This document shows, piece after piece, positions 8,444 through 63,961 of a stretch of DNA of 64,000 nt (the stretch's first letter is position 1; each line of letters begins with the position of its first letter). The stretch comes from Candidatus Gottesmanbacteria bacterium (GTDB lineage Bacteria > Patescibacteriota > Microgenomatia > UBA10105 > UBA927): NCBI GenBank assembly GCA_903821745.1, contig CAIJMI010000005.1:57051-121050 (forward strand), given 5' to 3'. Both the position numbers and the translations under genes were made by a program. Below the pieces are notes generated by a model, which was not told the DNA's origin, searched no databases, and saw only the letters and a list, made by a program, of their open reading frames with translations.

Positions 8444-9466
8444 ATGGCTTTTCTCAAAAAATCAAAACAGATCTCACCGTCGAAGATTCTTCTTTTTGTC
8501 CTCCTTTTTGGTTTTGGTATTTTTGCCATCTATTTGTTGTCATACAAAAATAGATTGAACTTGGATTTCCGTTCAAGAGCTGGGACGACCGTCGCTGTCA
8601 TAAAATCGTGGGATTTTGCAACAGATGGCAATACGGAAGGGTGGAACGCAACCAACATGACAGGGTTTACGACAAAATCAGGGCTTCTTGATGGAGTTGT
8701 AGGAGGAGATACGACAGGCTTAACGACAAAAGAAGTGAAAATACCATTTATAGCAAACACTGCAGTGGCATTGTCGACCAAAGAAAATGTCCGGTACGCA
8801 TTTGGGAATAAAAGCATTAAAATCCGTATGGCAGTAACTACTGGAATTTGTAGAGGTACAGCATATGTACAAGAAGAAGGACAGGAATCGAGTCTTCCGC
8901 GATGTCCAGGTGGAAACGATCCAATCACTTTTCCGTTTGAAATCAGTGTTATTACACCGCTTCGGGCTGCTGAATTTGATAAAACATTTCAAAAAGTGGT
9001 CGGCGACGGCGTGATGCATGAGTATGAATTCATTATTCCGGAATCGTTACCGATCACATCTATCCAAGGTATTTCAATAAAGTTTACGGGCCTTATGGGG
9101 AAAGCTGGCTCGGTCGTGAAAATTGATTATATTCAGGTGGTGGCAAGACAATTTATAAAACCAACACCAAAACCGGAGCCAGGCGCGTGCGGATTAAAAA
9201 ACAACGGGTGTTCCGGTTCCTGTACCTCAGGATCTACATGTAAGTTGGTGACACAGGGTGGAACAGCAGCTTGTACGTGTGTAACCAATCCCATACCAAA
9301 AGCTACCAAACCAGTCGTCGATTGTACATGGAAAGGCGCTAAATGTAGTGGTTCATGTGGGACAGGATCTACGTGTATACAAAGCGGGACAAACTCATGT
9401 AGCTGCCGAAATCTAAACCTAACCCCAACAAAAAGAATACCTACACCAATAACACGGTGGCAGTAA
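8444..9466 (+). CDS. membrane-anchored or secreted hypothetical protein with two C-terminal Cys-rich (EGF-like) repeats
   Basis: An N-terminal TM/signal helix (ILLFVLLFGFGIFAIYLL) is followed by a ~230-aa beta-rich region. It ends with two tandem modules of the form C-x4-5-C-SGSC-x-SGSTC...C.C (GACGLKNNGCSGSCTSGSTCKLV...CTCV and CTWKGAKCSGSCGTGSTCIQ...CSC). A strong SD (GAGGAGG) sits 8 nt upstream. Confidence 0.6.
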   Translation: MAFLKKSKQISPSKILLFVLLFGFGIFAIYLLSYKNRLNLDFRSRAGTTVAVIKSWDFATDGNTEGWNATNMTGFTTKSGLLDGVVGGDTTGLTTKEVKIPFIANTAVALSTKENVRYAFGNKSIKIRMAVTTGICRGTAYVQEEGQESSLPRCPGGNDPITFPFEISVITPLRAAEFDKTFQKVVGDGVMHEYEFIIPESLPITSIQGISIKFTGLMGKAGSVVKIDYIQVVARQFIKPTPKPEPGACGLKNNGCSGSCTSGSTCKLVTQGGTAACTCVTNPIPKATKPVVDCTWKGAKCSGSCGTGSTCIQSGTNSCSCRNLNLTPTKRIPTPITRWQ

Positions 9467-51511: not shown

Positions 51512-51518
51512 TTACAAG

Positions 51519-51600
51519 TGCCTCCGAGAGGATTTGAACCTCTAAGGGTTGCCCCATATGCTCCTGAAGCATACGCGTCTACCAATTGCGCCACGGAGGC
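51519..51600 (-). tRNA. tRNA-Leu (anticodon CAG), long variable arm
   Basis: The reverse complement GCCTCCGTGGCGCAATTGGTAGACGCGTATGCTTCAGGAGCATATGGGGCAACCCTTAGAGGTTCAAATCCTCTCGGAGGCA has anticodon loop TTCAGGA. Confidence 0.85.
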
Positions 51601-51661
51601 TCCGCGACTACCAAAAATTATAACACACAAACATTTTATCCCTATAGTACAATACAGATGT

Positions 51662-52561
51662 ATGAAGAACGAATGGAAAAAACTCCCTGAAGCATTCTTA
51701 GATCGATTGGAACAAATCGTACCGAAAGATGCAGTAAAAAGGATACTGCATGCGTATACGGTGCAACGAAAAACGACCATTCGGGTTAATACCTTAAAAA
51801 CAACAACCGAAGAACTCTTAACTATATTTAAAGAGCACCATATTATTTATAAACCATCTGACATCTCGCCAATTGCATTTATTATTCAAAATGAAAAGCG
51901 GGATCTTCTTGATCTTGATGCGTATACTAAAGGTCTGTTCTATATTCAAAGCCTCTCAAGTCAACTCCCAGCACTTGCTCTTGATCCAAAGCCAAACGAG
52001 AAAATTCTTGATATCGCAGCAGCGCCAGGGAGCAAAACTACACAAATTGCAGCCATCATGAATAATACCGGTGAAATTGTTGCAAACGACAACAGTAGAA
52101 TCAGAGGATATAAATTAGAAGCAAATCTTAAAACTCAAGGCGTAACAAATACTAAAATAGGTATATCGGCAGGACAAACACTCTGGCAAATATATCCGGA
52201 ATATTTTGACCGCGCACTTGTTGATGCTCCTTGCAGTATGGAAGGAACTTTTACTACAACAAACCCAAAAACGTATGAGCATTGGTCTGTCAAAGAGAAC
52301 AAAGAATTAGTACAGAGACAAAAATGGTTACTCCGATCAGCAATCAGTGCAACAAAACCAGGAGGGATTATTGTCTACTCAACGTGCACACTTGAACCAT
52401 CAGAAAATGAACAGGTTATTGAATGGATATTGAAAAAAGAGAAAGGGCATATTGAACTAGCAAAACCAATGTCTCATATCTATCCGTCTGAAACCATGGA
52501 AGGATTTTTTGTTGCAACCCTTAAAAAAACTTCGTCAACCATCCCTTCGGTACTGCTCTAG
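51662..52561 (+). CDS. 16S rRNA m5C methyltransferase, RsmB/RsmF (NOL1/NOP2/Sun) family
   Basis: SAM-binding ...LDIAAAPGSKTTQIA... and catalytic ...DAPCSMEGT...YSTCTLEP... motifs. I placed the start at the ATG at 51662 because the ORF-track start at 51518 overlaps tRNA-Leu. Confidence 0.8.
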   Translation: MKNEWKKLPEAFLDRLEQIVPKDAVKRILHAYTVQRKTTIRVNTLKTTTEELLTIFKEHHIIYKPSDISPIAFIIQNEKRDLLDLDAYTKGLFYIQSLSSQLPALALDPKPNEKILDIAAAPGSKTTQIAAIMNNTGEIVANDNSRIRGYKLEANLKTQGVTNTKIGISAGQTLWQIYPEYFDRALVDAPCSMEGTFTTTNPKTYEHWSVKENKELVQRQKWLLRSAISATKPGGIIVYSTCTLEPSENEQVIEWILKKEKGHIELAKPMSHIYPSETMEGFFVATLKKTSSTIPSVLL

Positions 52562-55573: not shown

Positions 55574-57286
55574 ATGATTCAACTTCTTATTACTATCTGT
55601 CTACTCATATTTCTTCAAACCAACGTTCAGGCTATTTATGATCCGCTATCCGTTGCAAATAATAAATACGGCATACACATAACCGATCAAAATGACATTT
55701 CGGCAACACACGATCTCGTGAACTCAACCAATGGAGATTGGGGATACGTCACCGTTGTCATTACTGACAATGACTTAAATAGAAATAAATGGCAGGAAGT
55801 ATTTAATACCATGCGTCGAAAACATCTTATTCCCTTAGTGCGTATCGCAACACATGTTGAAGGAGATGCCTGGGTTATTCCCCAGGAAGTCAATATTGAT
55901 AAATGGGTGGATTTTTTAAACAGCTTAAATTGGCCAATAGAAAATCGGTACGTTATTTTATTTAACGAACCAAATCACGCAAACGAATGGGGAAATACAT
56001 TAGACCCAGCAAGATACGGTGACCTTTTGATCAAATTTTCTCAGGCCTTAAAGAATGTTTCAAACGATTTCTTTATTCTTCCTGCTGGTCTTGATGCATC
56101 AGCCGCAAACGATGGAGCAACAATGGACGAAAAAACATATCTTACACAACTTTTTTCAAACTACCCGGATCTTTTCAACTATATCGATGGTTGGACATCC
56201 CACGCATACCCTAATCCCGCATTTTCAGGTTCTCCCAATGCTCTTGGTAAGGGAACGCTTGCGACATTTGCGTGGGAACGCGAATTGATCCGCTCATTTG
56301 GTATCACAAAAAAGTTACCCATATTTATCACAGAAACGGGATGGGAACACAGTGAGGGAAAATATTTGAACAACCGTTTATTATCATCTAACATTATCGC
56401 AAGTTACCTCCAGACAGCGGCCTCAGGCATTTGGACCGATAGGGATATTGTTGCAATCACTCCGTTTCTTCTAAATTATCAAGACAATCCTTTTGATCAT
56501 TTTTCCTGGAGAAAATTAAATTCAGCCGACTACTATCCTGAATATTATTCCTACCAGTCCTTACCAAAAACAGCTGGTACACCAAAACAGCGTGAAGTAT
56601 ATCAATTCACCCCATCACTATTTCCAGACTCCCTTGTTGTACATTCAACATATACACTGGAAACAACCTTACAAAACCTAGGCCAAAGCATTATTGAACC
56701 AAACAACGGGTATATCTTAACAATTCGTGATGAGACAAACCTCTTTGATGTCTTTACAGAACCGCTTCCAGTTCTCGAACCAAACGAAAAAGGCAGAGTC
56801 CGAGCCTTTATAAAAACACCAAAAGCAGAAGGAGACTACATAGTAACAACAATGATTACCCATGGAAGCATTCGCGTTCCCATTGAAACGAAAACAATAC
56901 ACATCATCCCTCCACCTTCAGCTGATCTATCCGTACAACTGGGATGGAGAAAAAACAGTGATAATCAGATCGCAACCGTTCTTCTATATGACACAAAAGA
57001 CACGCTCCTTCATAAATTTACGGACATTCGGATTCAAAACAATCACCTGAGTATTACCGGTTTTTATCAAGTGAAGCCTGGTGAAAAATACCGCGTTGTT
57101 GTCCTTGTTCCATACTATTTACCACGCCAAGCAATCATCACGATGCAAACAGAAGCCAACGTTTGGTCGGTAAAGCGTCTCTATCCGTTTGACTTTAACC
57201 GTGACGGCAAGTTGACTGTTCAAGACATCATTGCATTACTTCTGATGTCACCAAATATAGTCATACAATTATTTTTACATTCCTGA
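55574..57286 (+). CDS. secreted glycoside hydrolase, clan GH-A (cellulase-like TIM barrel) with C-terminal dockerin-like Ca-binding repeat
   Basis: Signal peptide; ...LFNEPNHANEWG... (NEP acid/base motif) and ...IFITETGWEH... (TE.G nucleophile motif) ~150 aa apart, as in GH5/GH39-type enzymes. The C-terminal ...FDFNRDGKLTVQDIIALL... is a dockerin/EF-hand-like segment. Confidence 0.6.
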   Translation: MIQLLITICLLIFLQTNVQAIYDPLSVANNKYGIHITDQNDISATHDLVNSTNGDWGYVTVVITDNDLNRNKWQEVFNTMRRKHLIPLVRIATHVEGDAWVIPQEVNIDKWVDFLNSLNWPIENRYVILFNEPNHANEWGNTLDPARYGDLLIKFSQALKNVSNDFFILPAGLDASAANDGATMDEKTYLTQLFSNYPDLFNYIDGWTSHAYPNPAFSGSPNALGKGTLATFAWERELIRSFGITKKLPIFITETGWEHSEGKYLNNRLLSSNIIASYLQTAASGIWTDRDIVAITPFLLNYQDNPFDHFSWRKLNSADYYPEYYSYQSLPKTAGTPKQREVYQFTPSLFPDSLVVHSTYTLETTLQNLGQSIIEPNNGYILTIRDETNLFDVFTEPLPVLEPNEKGRVRAFIKTPKAEGDYIVTTMITHGSIRVPIETKTIHIIPPPSADLSVQLGWRKNSDNQIATVLLYDTKDTLLHKFTDIRIQNNHLSITGFYQVKPGEKYRVVVLVPYYLPRQAIITMQTEANVWSVKRLYPFDFNRDGKLTVQDIIALLLMSPNIVIQLFLHS

Positions 57287-57337
57287 ATGCTTCACGAACA
57301 AGCAAAAGTACGATATACTCAAAGGTGGAAAACCAAT

Positions 57338-57416
57338 GGTGACTGTAGCTCAGCCCGGTTAGAGCGCCTCCCTGTGGAGGAGGATGTCGAGGGTCCGAAT
57401 CCCTTCAGTCACCCCA
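57338..57416 (+). tRNA. tRNA-His (anticodon GTG) with genome-encoded G-1 and CCA
   Basis: G-GTGACTGTAGCTCAGCCCGGTTAGAGCGCCTCCCTGTGGAGGAGGATGTCGAGGGTCCGAATCCCTTCAGTCAC-C-CCA has an extra 5' G pairing with C73 (the His identity element) and anticodon loop CTGTGGA. Confidence 0.85.
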
Positions 57417-57889
57417 TGAACGATAAAGACTTTTTGAAATTAGCAGTTGAACAAGCAAAAAAATCCGTTGAAATGGGAGGATTTCCTGCTGGTGCAGTCA
57501 TTGTCAAAAATGGACAAGTAATAGCAGAAGGAATCAGTCTTGGATACACGCTTCATGATCCCACAGAACATGCAGAAACGTCCGCGATCAAGAAAGCCTG
57601 CAAAACGATTGGCTCTTCCAATTTAGAAGGCGCCACTCTCTATGAATCCTTGGAATGTTGCACCATGTGTTTTTCGGTGAGCAATTGGGCAGGAATTTCA
57701 AGAATCGTCTATGCCTGTAGAAAAACACCGGATATGGTGAACAAACAATACTATGAAGGCATGACCAAAAACGAAGATATAAACGCTACGAACAACAATA
57801 AAATAGACCTTGTATTCATTCCTGAATTTGAACAAGAATGTTTAGATATGGTAAAAGACTGGGAACAAAAACAAACAAAAGCCTCCTAA
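57416..57889 (+). CDS. CMP/dCMP-type zinc deaminase (TadA/nucleoside deaminase-like)
   Basis: Zinc motifs ...HAETSAI... (H-A-E) and ...ECCTMC... (PC..C-like) ~30 aa apart. The ATG start (57416-57418) shares its A with the terminal A of the tRNA-His CCA; the ORF-track start at 57287 would run through the tRNA. Confidence 0.7.
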   Translation: MNDKDFLKLAVEQAKKSVEMGGFPAGAVIVKNGQVIAEGISLGYTLHDPTEHAETSAIKKACKTIGSSNLEGATLYESLECCTMCFSVSNWAGISRIVYACRKTPDMVNKQYYEGMTKNEDINATNNNKIDLVFIPEFEQECLDMVKDWEQKQTKAS

Positions 57890-57960: not shown

Positions 57961-59538
57961 ATGCAATTATCAAATACCGTTGAGAATTTACTTGCAGTTT
58001 TTGAAACTGATCGCATCCAATCCAAAGGAGAAAGTGGAATCTCCGTTTCCCGCACCGTATCTGCCCTTGCTACCCTTTATGAAAAAGCTCGAAATGCTGT
58101 GGAATTTCGAGCGGAGCACTTAGTTAGACGAGCTGCAATTGAACGTATCCTCAAACGCCGAATAATGCTTGGCGAAAACGCTGAGACTATTGCCGAAAAT
58201 TTAGGCATCGAGCTCATGTGGGCAAAATACATTGATAGCTCACTTATTACAGAACAAAAGGGGAAAGAGCTCACTGCCATCATCAGACGCTATCTCTTTA
58301 TTCGGCAAAACGTGTTTGGAACATCTGGAAAAAGAAAAGACCTCACATGGGGAATGATGCTTGGACTTGCTTCATCAGAAATTGATGAAACAATCGTATC
58401 ACCACAAAAACGTGCAGCATTAGTTAATTTTGTGTATCAAGCATTTAAAGACAGAATTAAAATTCCACGACTTGATGGGAAACAACACGATATCCAAACG
58501 TATATTGCGGTGGAACGCGCATTTGCTCAAGCAGATAACGCGCTCATTTCATATCATCTTCTCCATATCATGTATCCAGCATGGTTCACTGTTCAAGATG
58601 ACACGATCGCACAACATATAGATCAATTTCTTGATCAGATGCAATACATCCAGGATAATTTATTTTTACGGGTCAATGCACCAATCGTCCGACATCTGCG
58701 TTCCCAGCTTCCACCATACCGCCTAATCCGCGATTTGTTCCTTGAACAAAAAGAATCAGAACTACGAGAAATCATCAACGATTCTGAAAAACTCGACACA
58801 GCTCTGACCACGCTTGCAAATAAACGGTATCACGAAATCGGAGCAAAAGTACGACGAGCAGTTCTTAGAAGCATCATTTATATATTTTTGACTAAAATGA
58901 TACTTGCACTGGCTCTTGAGGCACCATATGACATGTTTGTCGCCAAAAAGGTTGCATACATACCGCTTCTGATTAATCTCTTATTTCCACCAATACTGCT
59001 TTATTTTGTTGCAGGATTTATTAAAATTCCTGGGCTTGATAATACAAAGTTACTTGTTGCTAAAGCAAAAGACATATTACATTATTTTGACACCGCAAAA
59101 GTTTCAGGTGGTATTTATACAGGAGCAGTAAAAAACAACCGACCAATCCTTTCAGCAATATTTACCATGTTCTATATTGCTGCATTTGCAGTAGTATTCG
59201 GCCTTATTACACTGGGACTAACACGCTTACACTTTACACTCGTTAGTCAAATTATCTTTGTATTTTTTGTTGCCTTGGTTTCCATATTTGCATATCGAAT
59301 TAGACAGTCAGCAAAGGAATATGAAGTTATTGAACATCAGGGCATTCTTGAACCACTCATCGATTTCTTCTTTTTACCAATTCTTCGTGCTGGAGACATG
59401 CTATCCAAAGAAATTGCAAAAATTAACTTCTTTATTTTCCTTTTCGATTTTGTCCTCGAAGCGCCACTCAAAGTTATCTTTGGGGTTGTTGAGGAATGGA
59501 TCCGTTTTATACGGATGAAAAAAGAAGAAATCTTGTAA
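57961..59538 (+). CDS. hypothetical protein: ~300-aa soluble N-terminal domain plus 4-5 C-terminal TM helices
   Basis: Intact 525-aa ORF with no recognisable catalytic motif. Hydrophobic helices run from ~aa 300 (IIYIFLTKMILALAL; IPLLINLLFPPILLYFVAGFI; ILSAIFTMFYIAAFAVVFGLITLGL; IIFVFFVALVSIFAY). It lies 10 nt upstream of the hydrogenase module. Confidence 0.45.
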   Translation: MQLSNTVENLLAVFETDRIQSKGESGISVSRTVSALATLYEKARNAVEFRAEHLVRRAAIERILKRRIMLGENAETIAENLGIELMWAKYIDSSLITEQKGKELTAIIRRYLFIRQNVFGTSGKRKDLTWGMMLGLASSEIDETIVSPQKRAALVNFVYQAFKDRIKIPRLDGKQHDIQTYIAVERAFAQADNALISYHLLHIMYPAWFTVQDDTIAQHIDQFLDQMQYIQDNLFLRVNAPIVRHLRSQLPPYRLIRDLFLEQKESELREIINDSEKLDTALTTLANKRYHEIGAKVRRAVLRSIIYIFLTKMILALALEAPYDMFVAKKVAYIPLLINLLFPPILLYFVAGFIKIPGLDNTKLLVAKAKDILHYFDTAKVSGGIYTGAVKNNRPILSAIFTMFYIAAFAVVFGLITLGLTRLHFTLVSQIIFVFFVALVSIFAYRIRQSAKEYEVIEHQGILEPLIDFFFLPILRAGDMLSKEIAKINFFIFLFDFVLEAPLKVIFGVVEEWIRFIRMKKEEIL

Positions 59539-59547
59539 TAATCGTTC

Positions 59548-60570
59548 ATGAAACAATTGTCTTCTGAAGAACTACTTACAAAAATCGAAAAAGCGCACCT
59601 CGTGGGTCGTGGCGGAAGCGGCTATTCAACGGCGACAAAATGGAAAGAGATGTTTGCAAAACATCATGACAGCATCTATATGGCGGTCAATGGATCTGAA
59701 GGAGAGCCTGGGACACTCAAGGACGGATACATTTTAAAAAATTGTCTACCTGACCTTTTATACGGTATTTCCCAAGCTTACGTTATTTTCCCGCAGACAA
59801 AATCCATATATCTCTATCTTCGAAAAGATTATTTTGAAACGTATAAAGACGCGATAGAAAATGAGCTCAAAAATTCAGTTCCAACACTTCCCCTTCTTAT
59901 GTTTAAAGAACCAGGCGGATATCTTTGCGGTGAAAACACGGTTCTTGTAAATGCAATTGAACAAAAACGGTTAGAGCCACGAAGAAAACCACCATATATT
60001 TCGGAAAAAGGATTATTTGATAAACCAACAATCGTTAACAATCTGGAAACTTTTTATCAAATAGGGAAAATTGCAAAAGACGAATATCGCGATACGAGGT
60101 TGTATTCAATTACTGGGGCCATTACAAATCCCGGAGTGTATGAAGAAGCCAATACCATTACCGTTTTTGAGCTTCTTGCTAAAACAAATAATGTACTCGG
60201 CGACACCATGTTTGTGCAGCTTGGCGGGGGAGCAAGCGGAATATATCTTACCAAAGAAGAACTGGCACAAACACCAGCCAACCGAGGCACCGGAGCACTC
60301 ATTATATATGACAGTACCACATGCTCATTTCTTTCCCTTCTGACGGAAAAGCTTCAATTTTTAATTGGAGAAAATTGTGGAAAATGTACACCTTGCAGAG
60401 AAGGGTTGTACCGTATGCACGAAATGGTAACAAAGGGACAATGGAATGAAACGCTTGCCAAGGACATTGCCGAAACGCTTGCCAAAACGAGTTTTTGCGG
60501 TCTTGGCGTGGGCGCTGGAAATGCGTTCGTCAGTTTATTTACAAAAAAGGATCAACTATGGAAAAAATAA
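59548..60570 (+). CDS. NuoF-like NADH-binding flavoprotein / 51-kDa subunit homologue (HydB-like), short form
   Basis: ...GRGGSGYSTATKW... (FMN/NADH site), ...VNGSEGEPGTLKDGY... and the [4Fe-4S] motif ...ENCGKCTPCREG...; 340 aa versus ~420-600 aa for canonical NuoF/HydB. Confidence 0.6.
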   Translation: MKQLSSEELLTKIEKAHLVGRGGSGYSTATKWKEMFAKHHDSIYMAVNGSEGEPGTLKDGYILKNCLPDLLYGISQAYVIFPQTKSIYLYLRKDYFETYKDAIENELKNSVPTLPLLMFKEPGGYLCGENTVLVNAIEQKRLEPRRKPPYISEKGLFDKPTIVNNLETFYQIGKIAKDEYRDTRLYSITGAITNPGVYEEANTITVFELLAKTNNVLGDTMFVQLGGGASGIYLTKEELAQTPANRGTGALIIYDSTTCSFLSLLTEKLQFLIGENCGKCTPCREGLYRMHEMVTKGQWNETLAKDIAETLAKTSFCGLGVGAGNAFVSLFTKKDQLWKK

Positions 60571-62240
60571 CAATTACTGTTGATGGAAATGGCATGCAGG
60601 TTACTGAAGGACAGCAATTACTTGCTGCTTTACAAGAACAGGGAATTAAGATTCCTGCTCTTTGTTATCATCCAGATTTCGAACCGGAAGAAAATTGCAG
60701 ATTATGCCTGGTTGAAGTAAACGGTAAAATTGTCACTTCCTGTAGCACGCGAATCAAACAAGGAATGGTTGTTCAAACAAATACCGAAGAACTGCTCAAA
60801 CTTCGAAAGACTAATGCAGAACTTTTGATTGCCAATTATGAAGGTTCCGATACCAGCTTTCGAAAAACCCTGTTACAGGAAATAACCTGTGAAGCAGGGG
60901 TCTGTCACACATCATCCTTGGTCCCACGAAAAAGTAAACGGGGAGAACTGCATTTTAGGGATATTCTGTTTTATGATCTCAAAAAATGCGTTGATTGCAG
61001 AAACTGCGTAAAAGCCTGTCAGACACAAAGCGTCTGTGCAGTATGTGTCAAAAATTATGGATATAGAGAGGAAATATCAAAACGGAATGACCGCTATTGC
61101 GTTTTTTGTGGCCAGTGTTTAGCGCATTGTCCAGCAGGAGCCATTTCGACAAATCCCATAATGGCAACAGAGGTCGGTACACTACTAACAAAAAAGGACA
61201 ACAAACCAGTAATGGTTGCACAAATAGCGCCTGCTGTTCGGGCAGCAATTGGTGAAGAATTCGGACTTCCGCATGGAACAATCGCAACAGAACAATTAAC
61301 GGAATCGTTAAAAAAAATCGGATTTGATTACGTATTTGATGTATCCGTTGGTGCAGATCTTACGACGGTAGAAGAGGCAAAAGAATTAGTACATCGTATC
61401 CAAACCAAAGGAAAACTGCCGATGTTTACATCTTGCTGTCCCGGATGGGTGAGGTATTTGGGAGTCTATTTTCCAAAGCTGTTACCAAATCTGACAACGG
61501 TGCATTCCCCACAAATTATGATGGCAGGCATTATTAAATGGTATTGGGCTAAAAAAATGCAGATTCCCAAAGAACGCGTTCACGTTGTATCGATCATGCC
61601 GTGTTTGGCAAAAAAATGGGAATCCCGGAGACCGGAATATCAAATTGATGGCATCAATCGTATCGATAACGTCTTAACAACCGTTGAAATTGCACGAATG
61701 ATTAAAGAAAAGGGAATTGATATTGCCAAGCTCAAAGGTGTACCCATGGATGACCCATTAGGGGATCCGACGGGTGCTGGTGTTATCTTTGGCGCTTCAG
61801 GCGGCGTAATGGTTGCGGCGCTTCGGTCAGGCTTTTATTTGCTTACTGGAAAAAATCCTGAAATTTTAGAATTTGAAAAAATTACAACGCTTGATGGATA
61901 TAAAACCATGGAAGTATCAGCACCAGGACTTAAACTTCGCGTTGCAGCAATTGATGGTCTTGGCAACGTCGGCAAAATCATAACAAAATTGAATGACTTT
62001 GATTATATAGAAGTCATGGCCTGCCGCGGAGGTTGCATTGGTGGAGGTGGACAACCGGTTCCTGTCAATGACAATATCAGAAAAAAACGTGCGGCAGCGC
62101 TATTTTCGATTGACAAAAACGCACCACTTCGTTTTGCGCATGACAATCCAGCCATCAAAATATTATATAAAGAATTTTTGACAGATGAACAAACAATCCA
62201 TACAATCTGTCATTATGGTCCACACCCTTCAGGAAGCTGA
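60558..62240 (+). CDS. hydA: [FeFe]-hydrogenase catalytic subunit with N-terminal 2Fe-2S ferredoxin-like and 4Fe-4S cluster domains
   Basis: H-cluster motifs L1 ...FTSCCPGWVRY..., L2 ...MPCLAKKWES... and L3 ...EVMACRGGCIGGGGQP.... The N-terminal ...ALCYHPDFEPEENCRLCLVEV... is a 2Fe-2S domain, with two C.{2}C.{2}C.{3}CP ferredoxin motifs. I placed the start at the ATG at 60558, overlapping the previous stop. Confidence 0.9.
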   Translation: MEKITITVDGNGMQVTEGQQLLAALQEQGIKIPALCYHPDFEPEENCRLCLVEVNGKIVTSCSTRIKQGMVVQTNTEELLKLRKTNAELLIANYEGSDTSFRKTLLQEITCEAGVCHTSSLVPRKSKRGELHFRDILFYDLKKCVDCRNCVKACQTQSVCAVCVKNYGYREEISKRNDRYCVFCGQCLAHCPAGAISTNPIMATEVGTLLTKKDNKPVMVAQIAPAVRAAIGEEFGLPHGTIATEQLTESLKKIGFDYVFDVSVGADLTTVEEAKELVHRIQTKGKLPMFTSCCPGWVRYLGVYFPKLLPNLTTVHSPQIMMAGIIKWYWAKKMQIPKERVHVVSIMPCLAKKWESRRPEYQIDGINRIDNVLTTVEIARMIKEKGIDIAKLKGVPMDDPLGDPTGAGVIFGASGGVMVAALRSGFYLLTGKNPEILEFEKITTLDGYKTMEVSAPGLKLRVAAIDGLGNVGKIITKLNDFDYIEVMACRGGCIGGGGQPVPVNDNIRKKRAAALFSIDKNAPLRFAHDNPAIKILYKEFLTDEQTIHTICHYGPHPSGS

Positions 62241-63408
62241 AAACTATTGTAACTCGTTTATCGCCCCAATGGGCAAACACCGAGAACGAACATTGGACCG
62301 AATGAAAACGCTAATGGATTTGCTCGGCAATCCTCAAAAAACCGTAACCGTGATTCATGTCGGTGGGTCAACAGGGAAAAGTTCTACAGCATATATCATA
62401 GCTGTTCTTCTTGAAACAACAGGTCTTCGAGTTGGTCTTCATATAAAACCCCATCTCCAAAAAATTACCGAGCGGTGCTGTATTAATCGCATACCAATAC
62501 CCGATGACCAATTTATTGCTTACGTCAACGCTATTCAACCATATATCAATACAATGATCGAAAAACCAACATACTTTGAGATCCTTGTTGCCATAACACT
62601 TTGGTATTTTGCCAAAAATCACGTTGATGTTGCAGTCATGGAGGTTGGACGTGGCGGACGAGTCGATGCAACAAATATCTGTTCTTCAAAACTATACGTT
62701 TTAACGAATGTTACGCTTATGCATACCGATATTCTTGGAAAAACGCTTGAAGATATCACGAAAGAAAAAATGGGAATAGTCAAACACAAGAACATGAAGG
62801 TAATCACAGGTGTTAGCCAGCCAAAATTACGATCATATCTTCAAAAGCTTGGACGAACACTGCATATTCCGATAACAATGGTTAATATAACTAAACACCT
62901 TACGCCATTAGAACAAAACCAGCGCCTTGCCATTGCCGCAGTGAAACTATTTACGTCAATTACGGAATCACAAATTCAACAGTGTCTGTCAACGATACAA
63001 ATTCCGGGACGAATGGAAATATGGGTAGTGAACGGACAAACGTTCATCATGGATAATGGTAAAACCAATAAATTTCTTACATTACTTCCATATCGATTTC
63101 CTAAAAAAAACATGCATGTTGTACTTCCTGCACAACTACTACTCAATACCAAAGCACTTATAAAGCAAACGGCTCCGTTTACTTCAGAATTTATTTTTGT
63201 TTCTTTTCCTGAAAGGCGTCCAGGAAAAATGGATAGGGCTCTAATGGAAAAAAGTATTCAAAAAAAACACAGAACATTTATTGATATAGAAAAATTTATT
63301 AGAACCTATATGAATAAACCCAACGAGGATGTTTTTTTAATCACCGGGAGCTTGAAGCTCATCGGCGCCATCCGCACTATCTTAAAACCTTCAATTGAAC
63401 TAAAATGA
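62215..63408 (+). CDS. folC: folylpolyglutamate synthase / dihydrofolate synthase (Mur-ligase family)
   Basis: P-loop ...VIHVGGSTGKSST... ~47 aa from the proposed start, plus Mur-ligase middle and C-terminal domains. The start is uncertain (Met candidates at 62185, 62215, 62269) and overlaps the hydA 3' end. Confidence 0.75.
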   Translation: MVHTLQEAENYCNSFIAPMGKHRERTLDRMKTLMDLLGNPQKTVTVIHVGGSTGKSSTAYIIAVLLETTGLRVGLHIKPHLQKITERCCINRIPIPDDQFIAYVNAIQPYINTMIEKPTYFEILVAITLWYFAKNHVDVAVMEVGRGGRVDATNICSSKLYVLTNVTLMHTDILGKTLEDITKEKMGIVKHKNMKVITGVSQPKLRSYLQKLGRTLHIPITMVNITKHLTPLEQNQRLAIAAVKLFTSITESQIQQCLSTIQIPGRMEIWVVNGQTFIMDNGKTNKFLTLLPYRFPKKNMHVVLPAQLLLNTKALIKQTAPFTSEFIFVSFPERRPGKMDRALMEKSIQKKHRTFIDIEKFIRTYMNKPNEDVFLITGSLKLIGAIRTILKPSIELK

Positions 63409-63412
63409 TCAT

Positions 63413-63961
63413 GTGATCAGCATCCAAGACCAAAAACAAATGCTTCGAAAACAAATACTTCTTGCCCGGAGAGCGTTTATTGGTCCTCCAAAACAAAAAG
63501 CAGATCGACTAATTTTTCAAAATATCACACACCATCAGCTTTATCAAAACGCAAAAACGATTTGCACCTATGTGTCCTTGGCAGACGAAGCTGACACACA
63601 TGCGCTTATTGATAATATTCTTACAAAAGAAGATAAAACACTGGTTGTGCCAAAAATTGAAGGTGAAACCATCACACTCTATCGCATTCATTCCTACGCA
63701 GATTTAGAAAAAGGAACACTCGGTATATTGGAACCCAAAAAAGGATGTGCATTGGCAACGATTGAGACAGTAGATCTTTTTATTGTCCCTGGCGTTGCAT
63801 TCGGCCATGACGGAACACGCATTGGTATGGGAAAAGGATATTATGACCGACTGCTTGCTAAAACCAACGCAACAAAAATTGGTATCGCATACCCGTTTCA
63901 AATTTTCGATTCCATTCCAACAACGGACAGGGATGAACGCGTTGATCTTCTTATATCCTAA
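63413..63961 (+). CDS. 5-formyltetrahydrofolate cyclo-ligase
   Basis: ...VDLFIVPGVAFGHDGTRIGMGKGYYDRLL... is the MTHFS signature; 182 aa. Confidence 0.85.
   Translation: MISIQDQKQMLRKQILLARRAFIGPPKQKADRLIFQNITHHQLYQNAKTICTYVSLADEADTHALIDNILTKEDKTLVVPKIEGETITLYRIHSYADLEKGTLGILEPKKGCALATIETVDLFIVPGVAFGHDGTRIGMGKGYYDRLLAKTNATKIGIAYPFQIFDSIPTTDRDERVDLLIS

Follow-up and report, generated by a model that had tools for sequence, protein, structure and literature searches.

Introduction

The described system closest in function to the genes examined here is HydAB of Syntrophus aciditrophicus, together with Hyd1ABC of Syntrophomonas wolfei, and a HydAB enzyme has been shown to produce H2 from NADH, independently of ferredoxin, at H2 partial pressures of 2-40 Pa (PMC7311640). 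In gene organisation, the nearest counterpart is hymABCD of Eubacterium (Peptoclostridium) acidaminophilum, as the work of Graentzdoerffer et al. (2003) is presented in PMC4967309. Related flavoproteins occur in the electron-bifurcating HydABC enzymes of group A3 (T. maritima, 7p5h; T. kivui, 8a6t; A. woodii, 7q4v) and in the NuoE-NuoF-NuoG part of respiratory complex I. Surveys class the group A [FeFe] enzymes by their gene neighbours, A1 being monomeric and A3 accompanied by hydB and hydC (PMC5520028). The genes in question lie in a 64,000-nucleotide (nt) stretch of Candidatus Gottesmanbacteria DNA (contig CAIJMI010000005.1, positions 57,051 to 121,050; hereafter the window), and encode a short NuoF-like flavoprotein and HydA, an [FeFe]-hydrogenase catalytic subunit, with a gene for a 525-amino-acid (aa) membrane protein directly upstream.

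Our preferred reading, to which we assign a probability of roughly 0.55, is that the flavoprotein and HydA make up a two-subunit, NAD(P)H-linked [FeFe]-hydrogenase that has neither NuoE nor the His-ligated [4Fe-4S] cluster FS4C, that this enzyme balances the FolD step of folate metabolism, and that the adjacency of the 525-aa gene is lineage-specific. A literature search, incomplete in coverage, found no description of a NuoE-less hydrogenase from the Candidate Phyla Radiation (CPR) or of a folate-linked cassette of this kind.

Results

A two-gene cassette without NuoE

The three genes stand head to tail on the plus strand of the window: the 525-aa membrane protein at 57961..59538, the 340-aa NuoF-like flavoprotein at 59548..60570, and the 560-aa HydA at 60558..62240, with a true start at the ATG at 60558 in agreement with the public gene call. 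The first-pass annotation of this DNA had linked the same three open reading frames (ORFs), and their coordinates were confirmed. It had also noted tight spacing; the overlap was borne out, at 13 nt between nuoF and hydA, and the spacer between the 525-aa gene and nuoF was corrected from 10 to 9 nt.

Wherever the flanking sequence sufficed to judge, in 15 related loci of 15, the short nuoF gene was directly followed by hydA (tblastn), and the pair is a widespread two-gene cassette of Patescibacteria. At least 120 short NuoF-like homologues were found in this group, the best 120 of which were all 305-359 aa long. One Parcubacteria-type locus, L150, carries a further gene between nuoF and hydA (8996-9364), which encodes a 122-aa PNPOx-like protein (PF01243, E 1.8e-7) with an FMN-binding split-barrel fold and which may be an additional flavin or electron-transfer component.

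NuoE was sought with a profile built from 32 NuoE proteins whose genes immediately precede ordinary nuoF in metagenome loci. These loci came from a metagenome scan with an alignment of the short NuoF, in which the matches listed were mostly ordinary NuoF genes and only L065-L068 were useful for the cassette; the ordinary loci then supplied the NuoE sequences and served as negative controls. The profile gave 33 matches in 30 control loci as a positive control, and neither the window nor any of 16 related cassette loci (+/-8-10 kb) gave a match at E <= 10. The motif C-x4-C...C-x3-C was likewise present in no real ORF of the window. The original observation that no NuoE/HydC-like subunit is encoded here therefore stands and extends to these 16 loci. 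A 166-aa protein encoded upstream of nuoF in L062 was considered as a divergent NuoE and rejected, as it is a hydrophobic protein with multiple transmembrane (TM) segments that belongs to the HymD-like family discussed below. Judged from its predicted proteins, the cassette does not qualify as HydABC, as a Hym-type system (HymA is missing), as an S. aciditrophicus-type HydAB with its NuoE module, or as complex I.

The flavoprotein retains a complete core

The flavoprotein had been described as a truncated NuoF carrying a CGKCTPCREG-type cluster. Its length and its cluster hold, but the description as truncated does not. The protein aligns to Aquifex NuoF residues 48-415 of 418, and in this alignment it keeps the motifs GRGGSGYSTATKW, NGSEGEPGTLKD, GGYLCGENT, EPRRKPPY, ENCGKCTPCREG and SFCGLG, with the cluster ligands provided by ENCGKCTPCREG and a fourth Cys in SFCGLG. 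The same motifs are conserved over 21 family members. From the alignment and the kept motifs we infer a complete core for flavin mononucleotide (FMN), NAD(H) and the N3-type cluster, which lacks the N-terminal ~45 residues and some loops of NuoF and shows no sign of catalytic truncation. Pfam assigned Complex1_51K (E 2.8e-23) and NADH_4Fe-4S (E 4.7e-14), with no other domain in the 340 aa.

As in complex I, the FMN site, the NADH site and the N3 ligands are those of NuoF, and the N-terminus of HydA is homologous to NuoG. Unlike complex I, the cassette is accompanied by neither NuoE nor any other nuo gene in its neighbourhood. The flavoprotein scored 179 bits against TIGR01959, for which the cut-off is 558.65; with a score under the equivalog cut-off and no nuo operon context, it does not classify by sequence as a respiratory complex I NuoF.

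The comparison with group A3 is similar. The flavoprotein is homologous to the core of HydB (E 1e-33 to 1e-35), but HydB proteins are ~600-630 aa long and carry extra Fe-S domains, namely an N-terminal [2Fe-2S] and a C-terminal 2x[4Fe-4S], all of which are missing here, as is HydC. With an FMN/NAD(H) domain and one [4Fe-4S] site only, and with the NuoF-HydA order held throughout, the proposal of a streamlined hydrogenase distinct from the trimeric HydABC is upheld.

Sequence markers for bifurcation mostly point in the same direction. Bifurcating beta subunits are marked by A/E and M near the NADH site, F near the FMN and GGPSG in SLBB, and Losey et al. give Thr (FPTG-type loop), Tyr (GxYxCGE) and the lack of extra Fe-S domains as non-bifurcating markers (PMC7311640). 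The flavoprotein of the window has STATKW (Thr) and GGYLCGE (Tyr), both of the non-bifurcating type, an equivalence drawn from motif alignment rather than from direct alignment to T. maritima HydB. Its SLBB motif, GGGASG, is near but not equal to the bifurcating GGPSG.

HydA has an intact H-cluster and has lost FS4C

HydA contains the Pfam domains Fer2_4, two Fer4, Fe_hyd_lg_C (E 9.8e-85) and Fe_hyd_SSU, that is, a [2Fe-2S] domain, two [4Fe-4S] sites and the H-cluster domain, and it scores 416.1 bits against TIGR02512 (cut-off 405.95). All three H-cluster motifs are present, L1 as TSCCPGW, L2 as MPCLAKKWE and L3 as EVMACRGGCIGGGGQP (patterns TSCCPxW, MPCxxKxxE and ExMACxxGCxxGGGQP). By these sequence features it classifies as the catalytic subunit of a group A [FeFe]-hydrogenase, and the complete H-cluster and N-terminal 2Fe-2S domain first reported for it were both recovered. 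Its N-terminus matches the NuoG families TIGR01973 and PRK08493, and its closest solved relative is T. kivui HydA1 (8a6t_A, E 1e-134).

The FS2 site and both CxxCxxCxxxC motifs are present. FS4C has been lost, the ligand pattern H-x3-C-x2-C-x5-C being replaced by NYEGSDTSFRK (~residues 90-105), and PF10588 was not detected in the protein; as predicted from sequence, HydA thus departs from the M3-type (CpI-like) architecture in having no FS4C. In an alignment of 13 homologues, FS4C was lost in all folate-linked Microgenomates-type HydAs (for example L062, L146, L001, L008 and L145) and kept in the Parcubacteria-type, non-folate-linked HydAs (L063-L067, L147).

Set beside S. aciditrophicus HydAB, the cassette shares the N-terminal [2Fe-2S] and ferredoxin-type clusters of HydA, an FMN- and NADH-binding beta subunit of the NuoF type without C-terminal ferredoxin domains, and the Thr and Tyr markers. 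It differs in having GGGASG in SLBB, no FS4C, and no NuoE-like domain or gene, whereas in S. aciditrophicus HydB a NuoE-like (HydC-like) part is fused to NuoF, residues 15-152 being Hyd1C-like (PMC7311640).

Because it lacks the NuoE/HydC module, FS4C and the extra Fe-S domains and has the Thr and Tyr markers, the predicted two-subunit enzyme is most likely non-bifurcating. One could instead see in the cassette a remnant or partial bifurcating HydABC, the missing modules of which lie elsewhere or have been replaced, for example by the HymD-like protein or the FMN-fold protein of L150. The closest solved relative of HydA is indeed a bifurcating enzyme, the GGGASG motif resembles its bifurcating counterpart (PMC7311640), L150 has its PNPOx-like gene inside the cassette, and the Hym operon, from which HymD takes its name, includes the NuoE-like HymA (PMC4967309). 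We nevertheless consider this improbable, as NuoE is absent from around the cassette in 16 loci of diverse lineages, the flavoprotein has none of the additional Fe-S domains found in bifurcating beta subunits and carries Thr and Tyr, the non-bifurcating residues, at the two marker positions, and HydA has lost FS4C.

The cassette is embedded in a folate operon in Microgenomates

Downstream of hydA, the window contains a FolC/FPGS-like gene of the Mur-ligase family (62185..63408, plus strand; Pfam Mur_ligase_M), which opens a folate block and occupies an equal position in L001, L006-L009 and L145, followed by a gene for 5-formyltetrahydrofolate cyclo-ligase (5FCL; 63413..63961, plus strand; PF01812 in public gene calls of the same contig). 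Beyond the window end, the same genome (L148) continues with SHMT, FTHFS and FolD, and then a HymD-like gene on the minus strand. The order in the window clade is NuoF-HydA-FolC-5FCL-SHMT-FTHFS-FolD. Three further Microgenomates-type lineages, 53-54% identical, have other orders: SHMT, 166-aa HymD-like, NuoF, HydA, FTHFS, FolD in L062; the same with SHMT inverted in L149; and SHMT-FTHFS-FolD-NuoF-HydA-5FCL in L146. The cassette is thus embedded in a folate one-carbon operon in Microgenomates, in four gene orders.

The gene content suggests how such an enzyme could work. The flavoprotein and HydA would form a cytoplasmic two-subunit NAD(P)H-linked [FeFe]-hydrogenase, in which NAD(P)H would give its electrons to FMN. 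The one N3-type [4Fe-4S] that the flavoprotein carries would relay them to HydA, where the N-terminal [2Fe-2S], which corresponds to N1b of complex I, would pass them through the two ferredoxin-type [4Fe-4S] clusters to the H-cluster; the reverse path may also operate. The hydrogenase would exchange the NAD(P)H of the methylene-tetrahydrofolate (methylene-THF) dehydrogenase step of FolD with H2. In the direction that we favour, serine would be converted to glycine, formate and ATP by way of methylene-THF and formyl-THF, the electrons being disposed of as H2 at low H2 pressure. An ATP-yielding, NAD+-requiring route of this kind, SHMT-FolD-FTHFS to formate, has been described in a mitochondrion-related organelle (PMC9746703). 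The alternative direction, H2-driven formate assimilation, would be equally compatible with the sequence.

In that alternative the cassette would be an H2-uptake module that supplies NAD(P)H for the reductive folate direction, from formate and ATP to formyl-THF, methylene-THF, and then serine and C1 units for purines, thymidylate and formylmethionine. It draws on the same operon evidence as H2 production does; thermodynamics favours electron transfer from H2 to NAD+, HydAB-type enzymes work in both directions (PMC7311640), and the FolC-like and 5FCL genes suit the maintenance of a cofactor for biosynthesis. We regard uptake as somewhat unlikely all the same, since group A [FeFe]-hydrogenases of fermenters usually evolve H2 and CPR bacteria are generally described as fermentative, without other obvious NADH sinks, although nothing in the sequence fixes the direction.

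A HymD-like protein is the recurrent membrane neighbour

A ~172-aa multi-TM protein adjoins the cassette in 12 of 18 cassette loci and was found at none of 52 loci holding the 525-aa gene only and none of 76 ordinary nuoF loci (0/128 controls). In public sources, its homologues are labelled, among other names, as an '[Fe] hydrogenase, HymD subunit' or 'iron hydrogenase', and also as an 'ECF transporter S component' or a 'riboflavin transporter'. HymD of the hym operon is itself small and hydrophobic. The gene lies upstream of nuoF in L062 (7500-8000) and L149 (7499-8026), and downstream of hydA in L063 (11149-11670), L066 (9923-10459), L147 (12901-13422) and L150 (11184-11708). In the window clade it is convergent after folD, as in L145 (18370-18894), L006 (20050-20580) and the window's own genome (L148, 9741-10259, minus strand), where it is ~3.9 kb past the window end and ~5.8 kb downstream of the cassette.

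The cassette accordingly resembles hymABCD in that its flavoprotein is HymB-like, its HydA is HymC-like and a small multi-TM 'HymD subunit' protein is encoded nearby. The cassette differs from that operon, as far as PMC4967309 presents it, in lacking the NuoE-like HymA and the extra N-terminal [2Fe-2S] of HymB, and in the window's genome also in the distance and opposite strand of its HymD-like gene.

The HymD-like protein also resembles, weakly, the S components of energy-coupling factor (ECF) transporters (PF12822; e.g. RibU, FolT), with scores under the Pfam cut-off in the members tested. Many database homologues have a precomputed PF12822 match; of nine members that we scanned, four matched at E <= 1 (best E 5.6e-7), and the window-clade members had no match. 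The best score was 27.2 bits (E 4.6e-6), against a gathering threshold of 30.7 bits. No ECF A/T genes were seen near the HymD-like genes. The protein could serve in cofactor uptake, such as that of riboflavin for the FMN site, or could be a true hydrogenase subunit. The idea that a membrane protein accompanies this hydrogenase therefore had some basis, but the 525-aa gene was the wrong gene: the recurrent membrane neighbour of the cassette is the HymD-like/ECF-S-like protein.

The 525-aa gene belongs to a separate conserved block

The 525-aa protein had been put forward as an uncharacterised membrane anchor or electron-transfer partner of the hydrogenase. We examined its co-occurrence with the cassette in a scan of one genome per species, which gave 56 loci of the 525-aa family, 39 of them assessable with at least 3 kb of downstream sequence each, and searched these loci with the window proteins by tblastn. 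Adjoining NuoF and HydA genes were present at only 4 of the 39 (L006-L009), and the 525-aa proteins of these four are 77-86% identical to that of the window. The other 35 loci had no hydrogenase within 3-10 kb, and their proteins are 32-59% identical, bar one short fragment. Two ~1-Mb Gottesmanbacteria contigs agree at the gene-call level, with the 525-aa gene present and no adjoining nuoF or hydA. Conversely, 11 cassette loci of other lineages have no 525-aa protein nearby (including L062-L067, L146, L147, L149 and L150).

The commoner neighbour of the 525-aa gene is an upstream gene for a secreted 570-aa protein, at 28 loci, with DUF192 and polyprenyl synthase genes often upstream too. The 525-aa gene is part of this separate conserved block of polyprenyl synthase, DUF192, secreted 570-aa protein and 525-aa protein. 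In the window the secreted protein is encoded at 55574-57286 on the plus strand and has a signal-peptide-like N-terminus; it matched nothing in Pfam, PADLOC or PHROGs. We take its NEPNH and ITETGW motifs to be reminiscent of clan GH-A glycosidases, and the DFNRDGKLT near its C-terminus to be dockerin-like.

The protein itself has no visible redox-cofactor site. Hydropathy supports the soluble domain and TM helices originally described: the N-terminal ~295 aa are without hydrophobic segments and are followed by five such segments (303-322, 333-355, 396-420, 425-447 and 487-510). The sequence contains no cysteine, no column of an alignment of 87 family members reaches 50% Cys, and the sole well-conserved His is H53 (89%), in the soluble domain; on this evidence the protein does not qualify as a cytochrome b-type or Fe-S membrane subunit. 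Charged and polar residues are conserved in the hydrophobic segments (R303, K312, E320, N339, D496, E500 and K504), a pattern more in keeping with a transporter, a channel or a membrane enzyme than with an electron carrier.

Profile searches and structure prediction agreed with the novelty claimed for the protein. The family had no match in Pfam, NCBIfam, PADLOC or PHROGs, even with 34 diverse members at E <= 1; sequence-profile searches of the PDB with two alignments gave chance-level matches only, and a Foldseek search of the model against the PDB gave none. The AlphaFold models are all-helical, with a predicted local distance difference test score of 85.4 in AlphaFold2. A weak TetR-C/COQ9 resemblance, treated as a lead only, could hint at a lipid- or ligand-binding helical bundle. 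From the intramembrane charges and this resemblance only, we tentatively suppose that the protein resembles a membrane transporter or channel and that its helical domain lies in the cytoplasm and binds a ligand. An internal repeat in the membrane part, suggested by a 'LEAP' motif that occurs twice, was rejected (hhalign probability 1.5%). The family is large, with 577 proteins at E <= 0.001 in a word-indexed search, the best 120 of which are all ~515-600 aa, and 993 representatives at 50% identity in an exhaustive search.

A dedicated role for the 525-aa protein in tethering NuoF-HydA, as membrane anchor or electron-transfer partner and at least in the window clade, is thus very unlikely, and the co-occurrence analysis that the first-pass annotation recommended as a check largely refutes it. 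The 9-nt same-strand spacer leaves no room for a terminator, so that co-transcription in the window clade is likely, and tight adjacency is kept in seven of seven clade loci (L001, L006-L009, L145, L148). Those seven loci nonetheless represent one evolutionary event, set against the 35 assessable species-level loci with no hydrogenase nearby and the 11 cassette loci with no 525-aa protein; the protein also has no conserved Cys/His ligand set and no cofactor domain. Every long ORF from 48674 to the window end is on the plus strand, and since short spacers are usual in this one-directional gene array, the 9-nt gap is no sign of partnership. Of the single transcript first proposed, co-transcription in the clade survives as likely, while the implied partnership does not; the adjacency is probably a single clade-specific juxtaposition that does not point to shared function.

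Neighbouring features

In the flanks of the 525-aa gene in 25 loci, ORFs of ~82-91 aa with a GIY-YIG nuclease domain (for example L002 12401-12676, L004 11795-12043 and L145 18878-19150) are seen repeatedly, as are IS200-type Y1 transposases and toxin-antitoxin pairs. This suggests that the region downstream of the gene is a hotspot of insertion or rearrangement, which could account for the position of the hydrogenase-folate block next to the 525-aa gene.

Many public metagenome-assembled genome records with a Microgenomates-type 525-aa gene are titled 'uncultured Gammaproteobacteria bacterium' (e.g. L007, L009, L010, L012 and L013; binchicken co-assemblies). These titles look like placeholder mislabels, because gene content and synteny match Gottesmanbacteria/Microgenomates.

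The FolC-like ORF as mechanically listed overlaps hydA by 56 nt (62185-62240), and folC may in fact begin at a later position. Among the sigma-70-like matches in the region, the best (11/12: TTGACA, 17 nt, TACAAT) lies at 62178-62206, within the 3' end of hydA and at the start of the FolC-like ORF, where an internal promoter is possible. Counts from the promoter and terminator scan of the region were at chance level, and we did not use them as evidence. The window has a G+C content of ~40% and contains 13 tRNA genes. An ORF at 57287-57889, cytidine/tRNA-adenosine deaminase-like, overlaps tRNA-His (57339-57416), and its true start is probably the Met at ~57416; another, at 51518-52561, overlaps a tRNA-Leu on the opposite strand.

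Discussion

We favour a NuoE-less, FS4C-less hydrogenase tied to the FolD step, and several points weigh against this view or parts of it. Every NuoF-type flavoprotein among the solved-structure matches that we checked against the literature is paired with a NuoE-like subunit or fused to a NuoE-like domain, and this holds for the 'dimeric' S. aciditrophicus HydB too (PMC7311640). Without NuoE, an enzyme might lack stability or depend on some other partner. Given the likeness of GGGASG to GGPSG (PMC7311640), the enzyme may bifurcate with an unknown partner. The activity of the cassette enzyme is predicted from sequence. No ORF of at least 60 aa in the 64-kb window contains the CxxxCxxC radical-SAM motif, so that hydE and hydG are not encoded within these 64 kb; this is not decisive, because the known maturases are also missing from many archaea in which [FeFe]-hydrogenases are active (PMC11216029). 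As to the folate link, Parcubacteria-type cassettes (37-47% identical) are not folate-linked, the four Microgenomates arrangements may stem from one ancestral linkage, and glyA and folD occur in ~80% of CPR genomes regardless (PMC11974145). Lastly, within the window clade the 525-aa gene is always tightly upstream of the cassette (spacers of 9-15 nt, or overlap), and a clade-specific recruitment of the protein to the hydrogenase is possible.

A broader proposal, which we put forward tentatively and would not yet call probable, is that Microgenomates have a 'serine/C1-to-formate plus H2' module, in which a two-subunit hydrogenase is operon-tied to SHMT-FolD-FTHFS, the ATP from formyl-THF is paid for by H2, and a HymD-like protein is a third component; separately, the 525-aa protein would found a Patescibacteria-wide family (~1000 clusters at 50% identity) with a fold that has no solved relative. 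Whatever its function, the 525-aa protein should not be annotated as hydrogenase-associated, and its large conserved family is worth a study of its own.

A cassette with hydB and without hydC falls between groups A1 and A3, and would be misread as ferredoxin-dependent or bifurcating. Under the broader proposal, no NuoF-coupled hydrogenase so far would be smaller than this one. NuoE would be dispensable for a NuoF-type NADH input module if the pair works alone, and the pair would then offer a very compact NADH-to-H2 wire for biochemistry or engineering. The link to SHMT-FolD-FTHFS is a concrete proposal for how fermenters with reduced genomes may shed or gain reducing equivalents, and possibly ATP.

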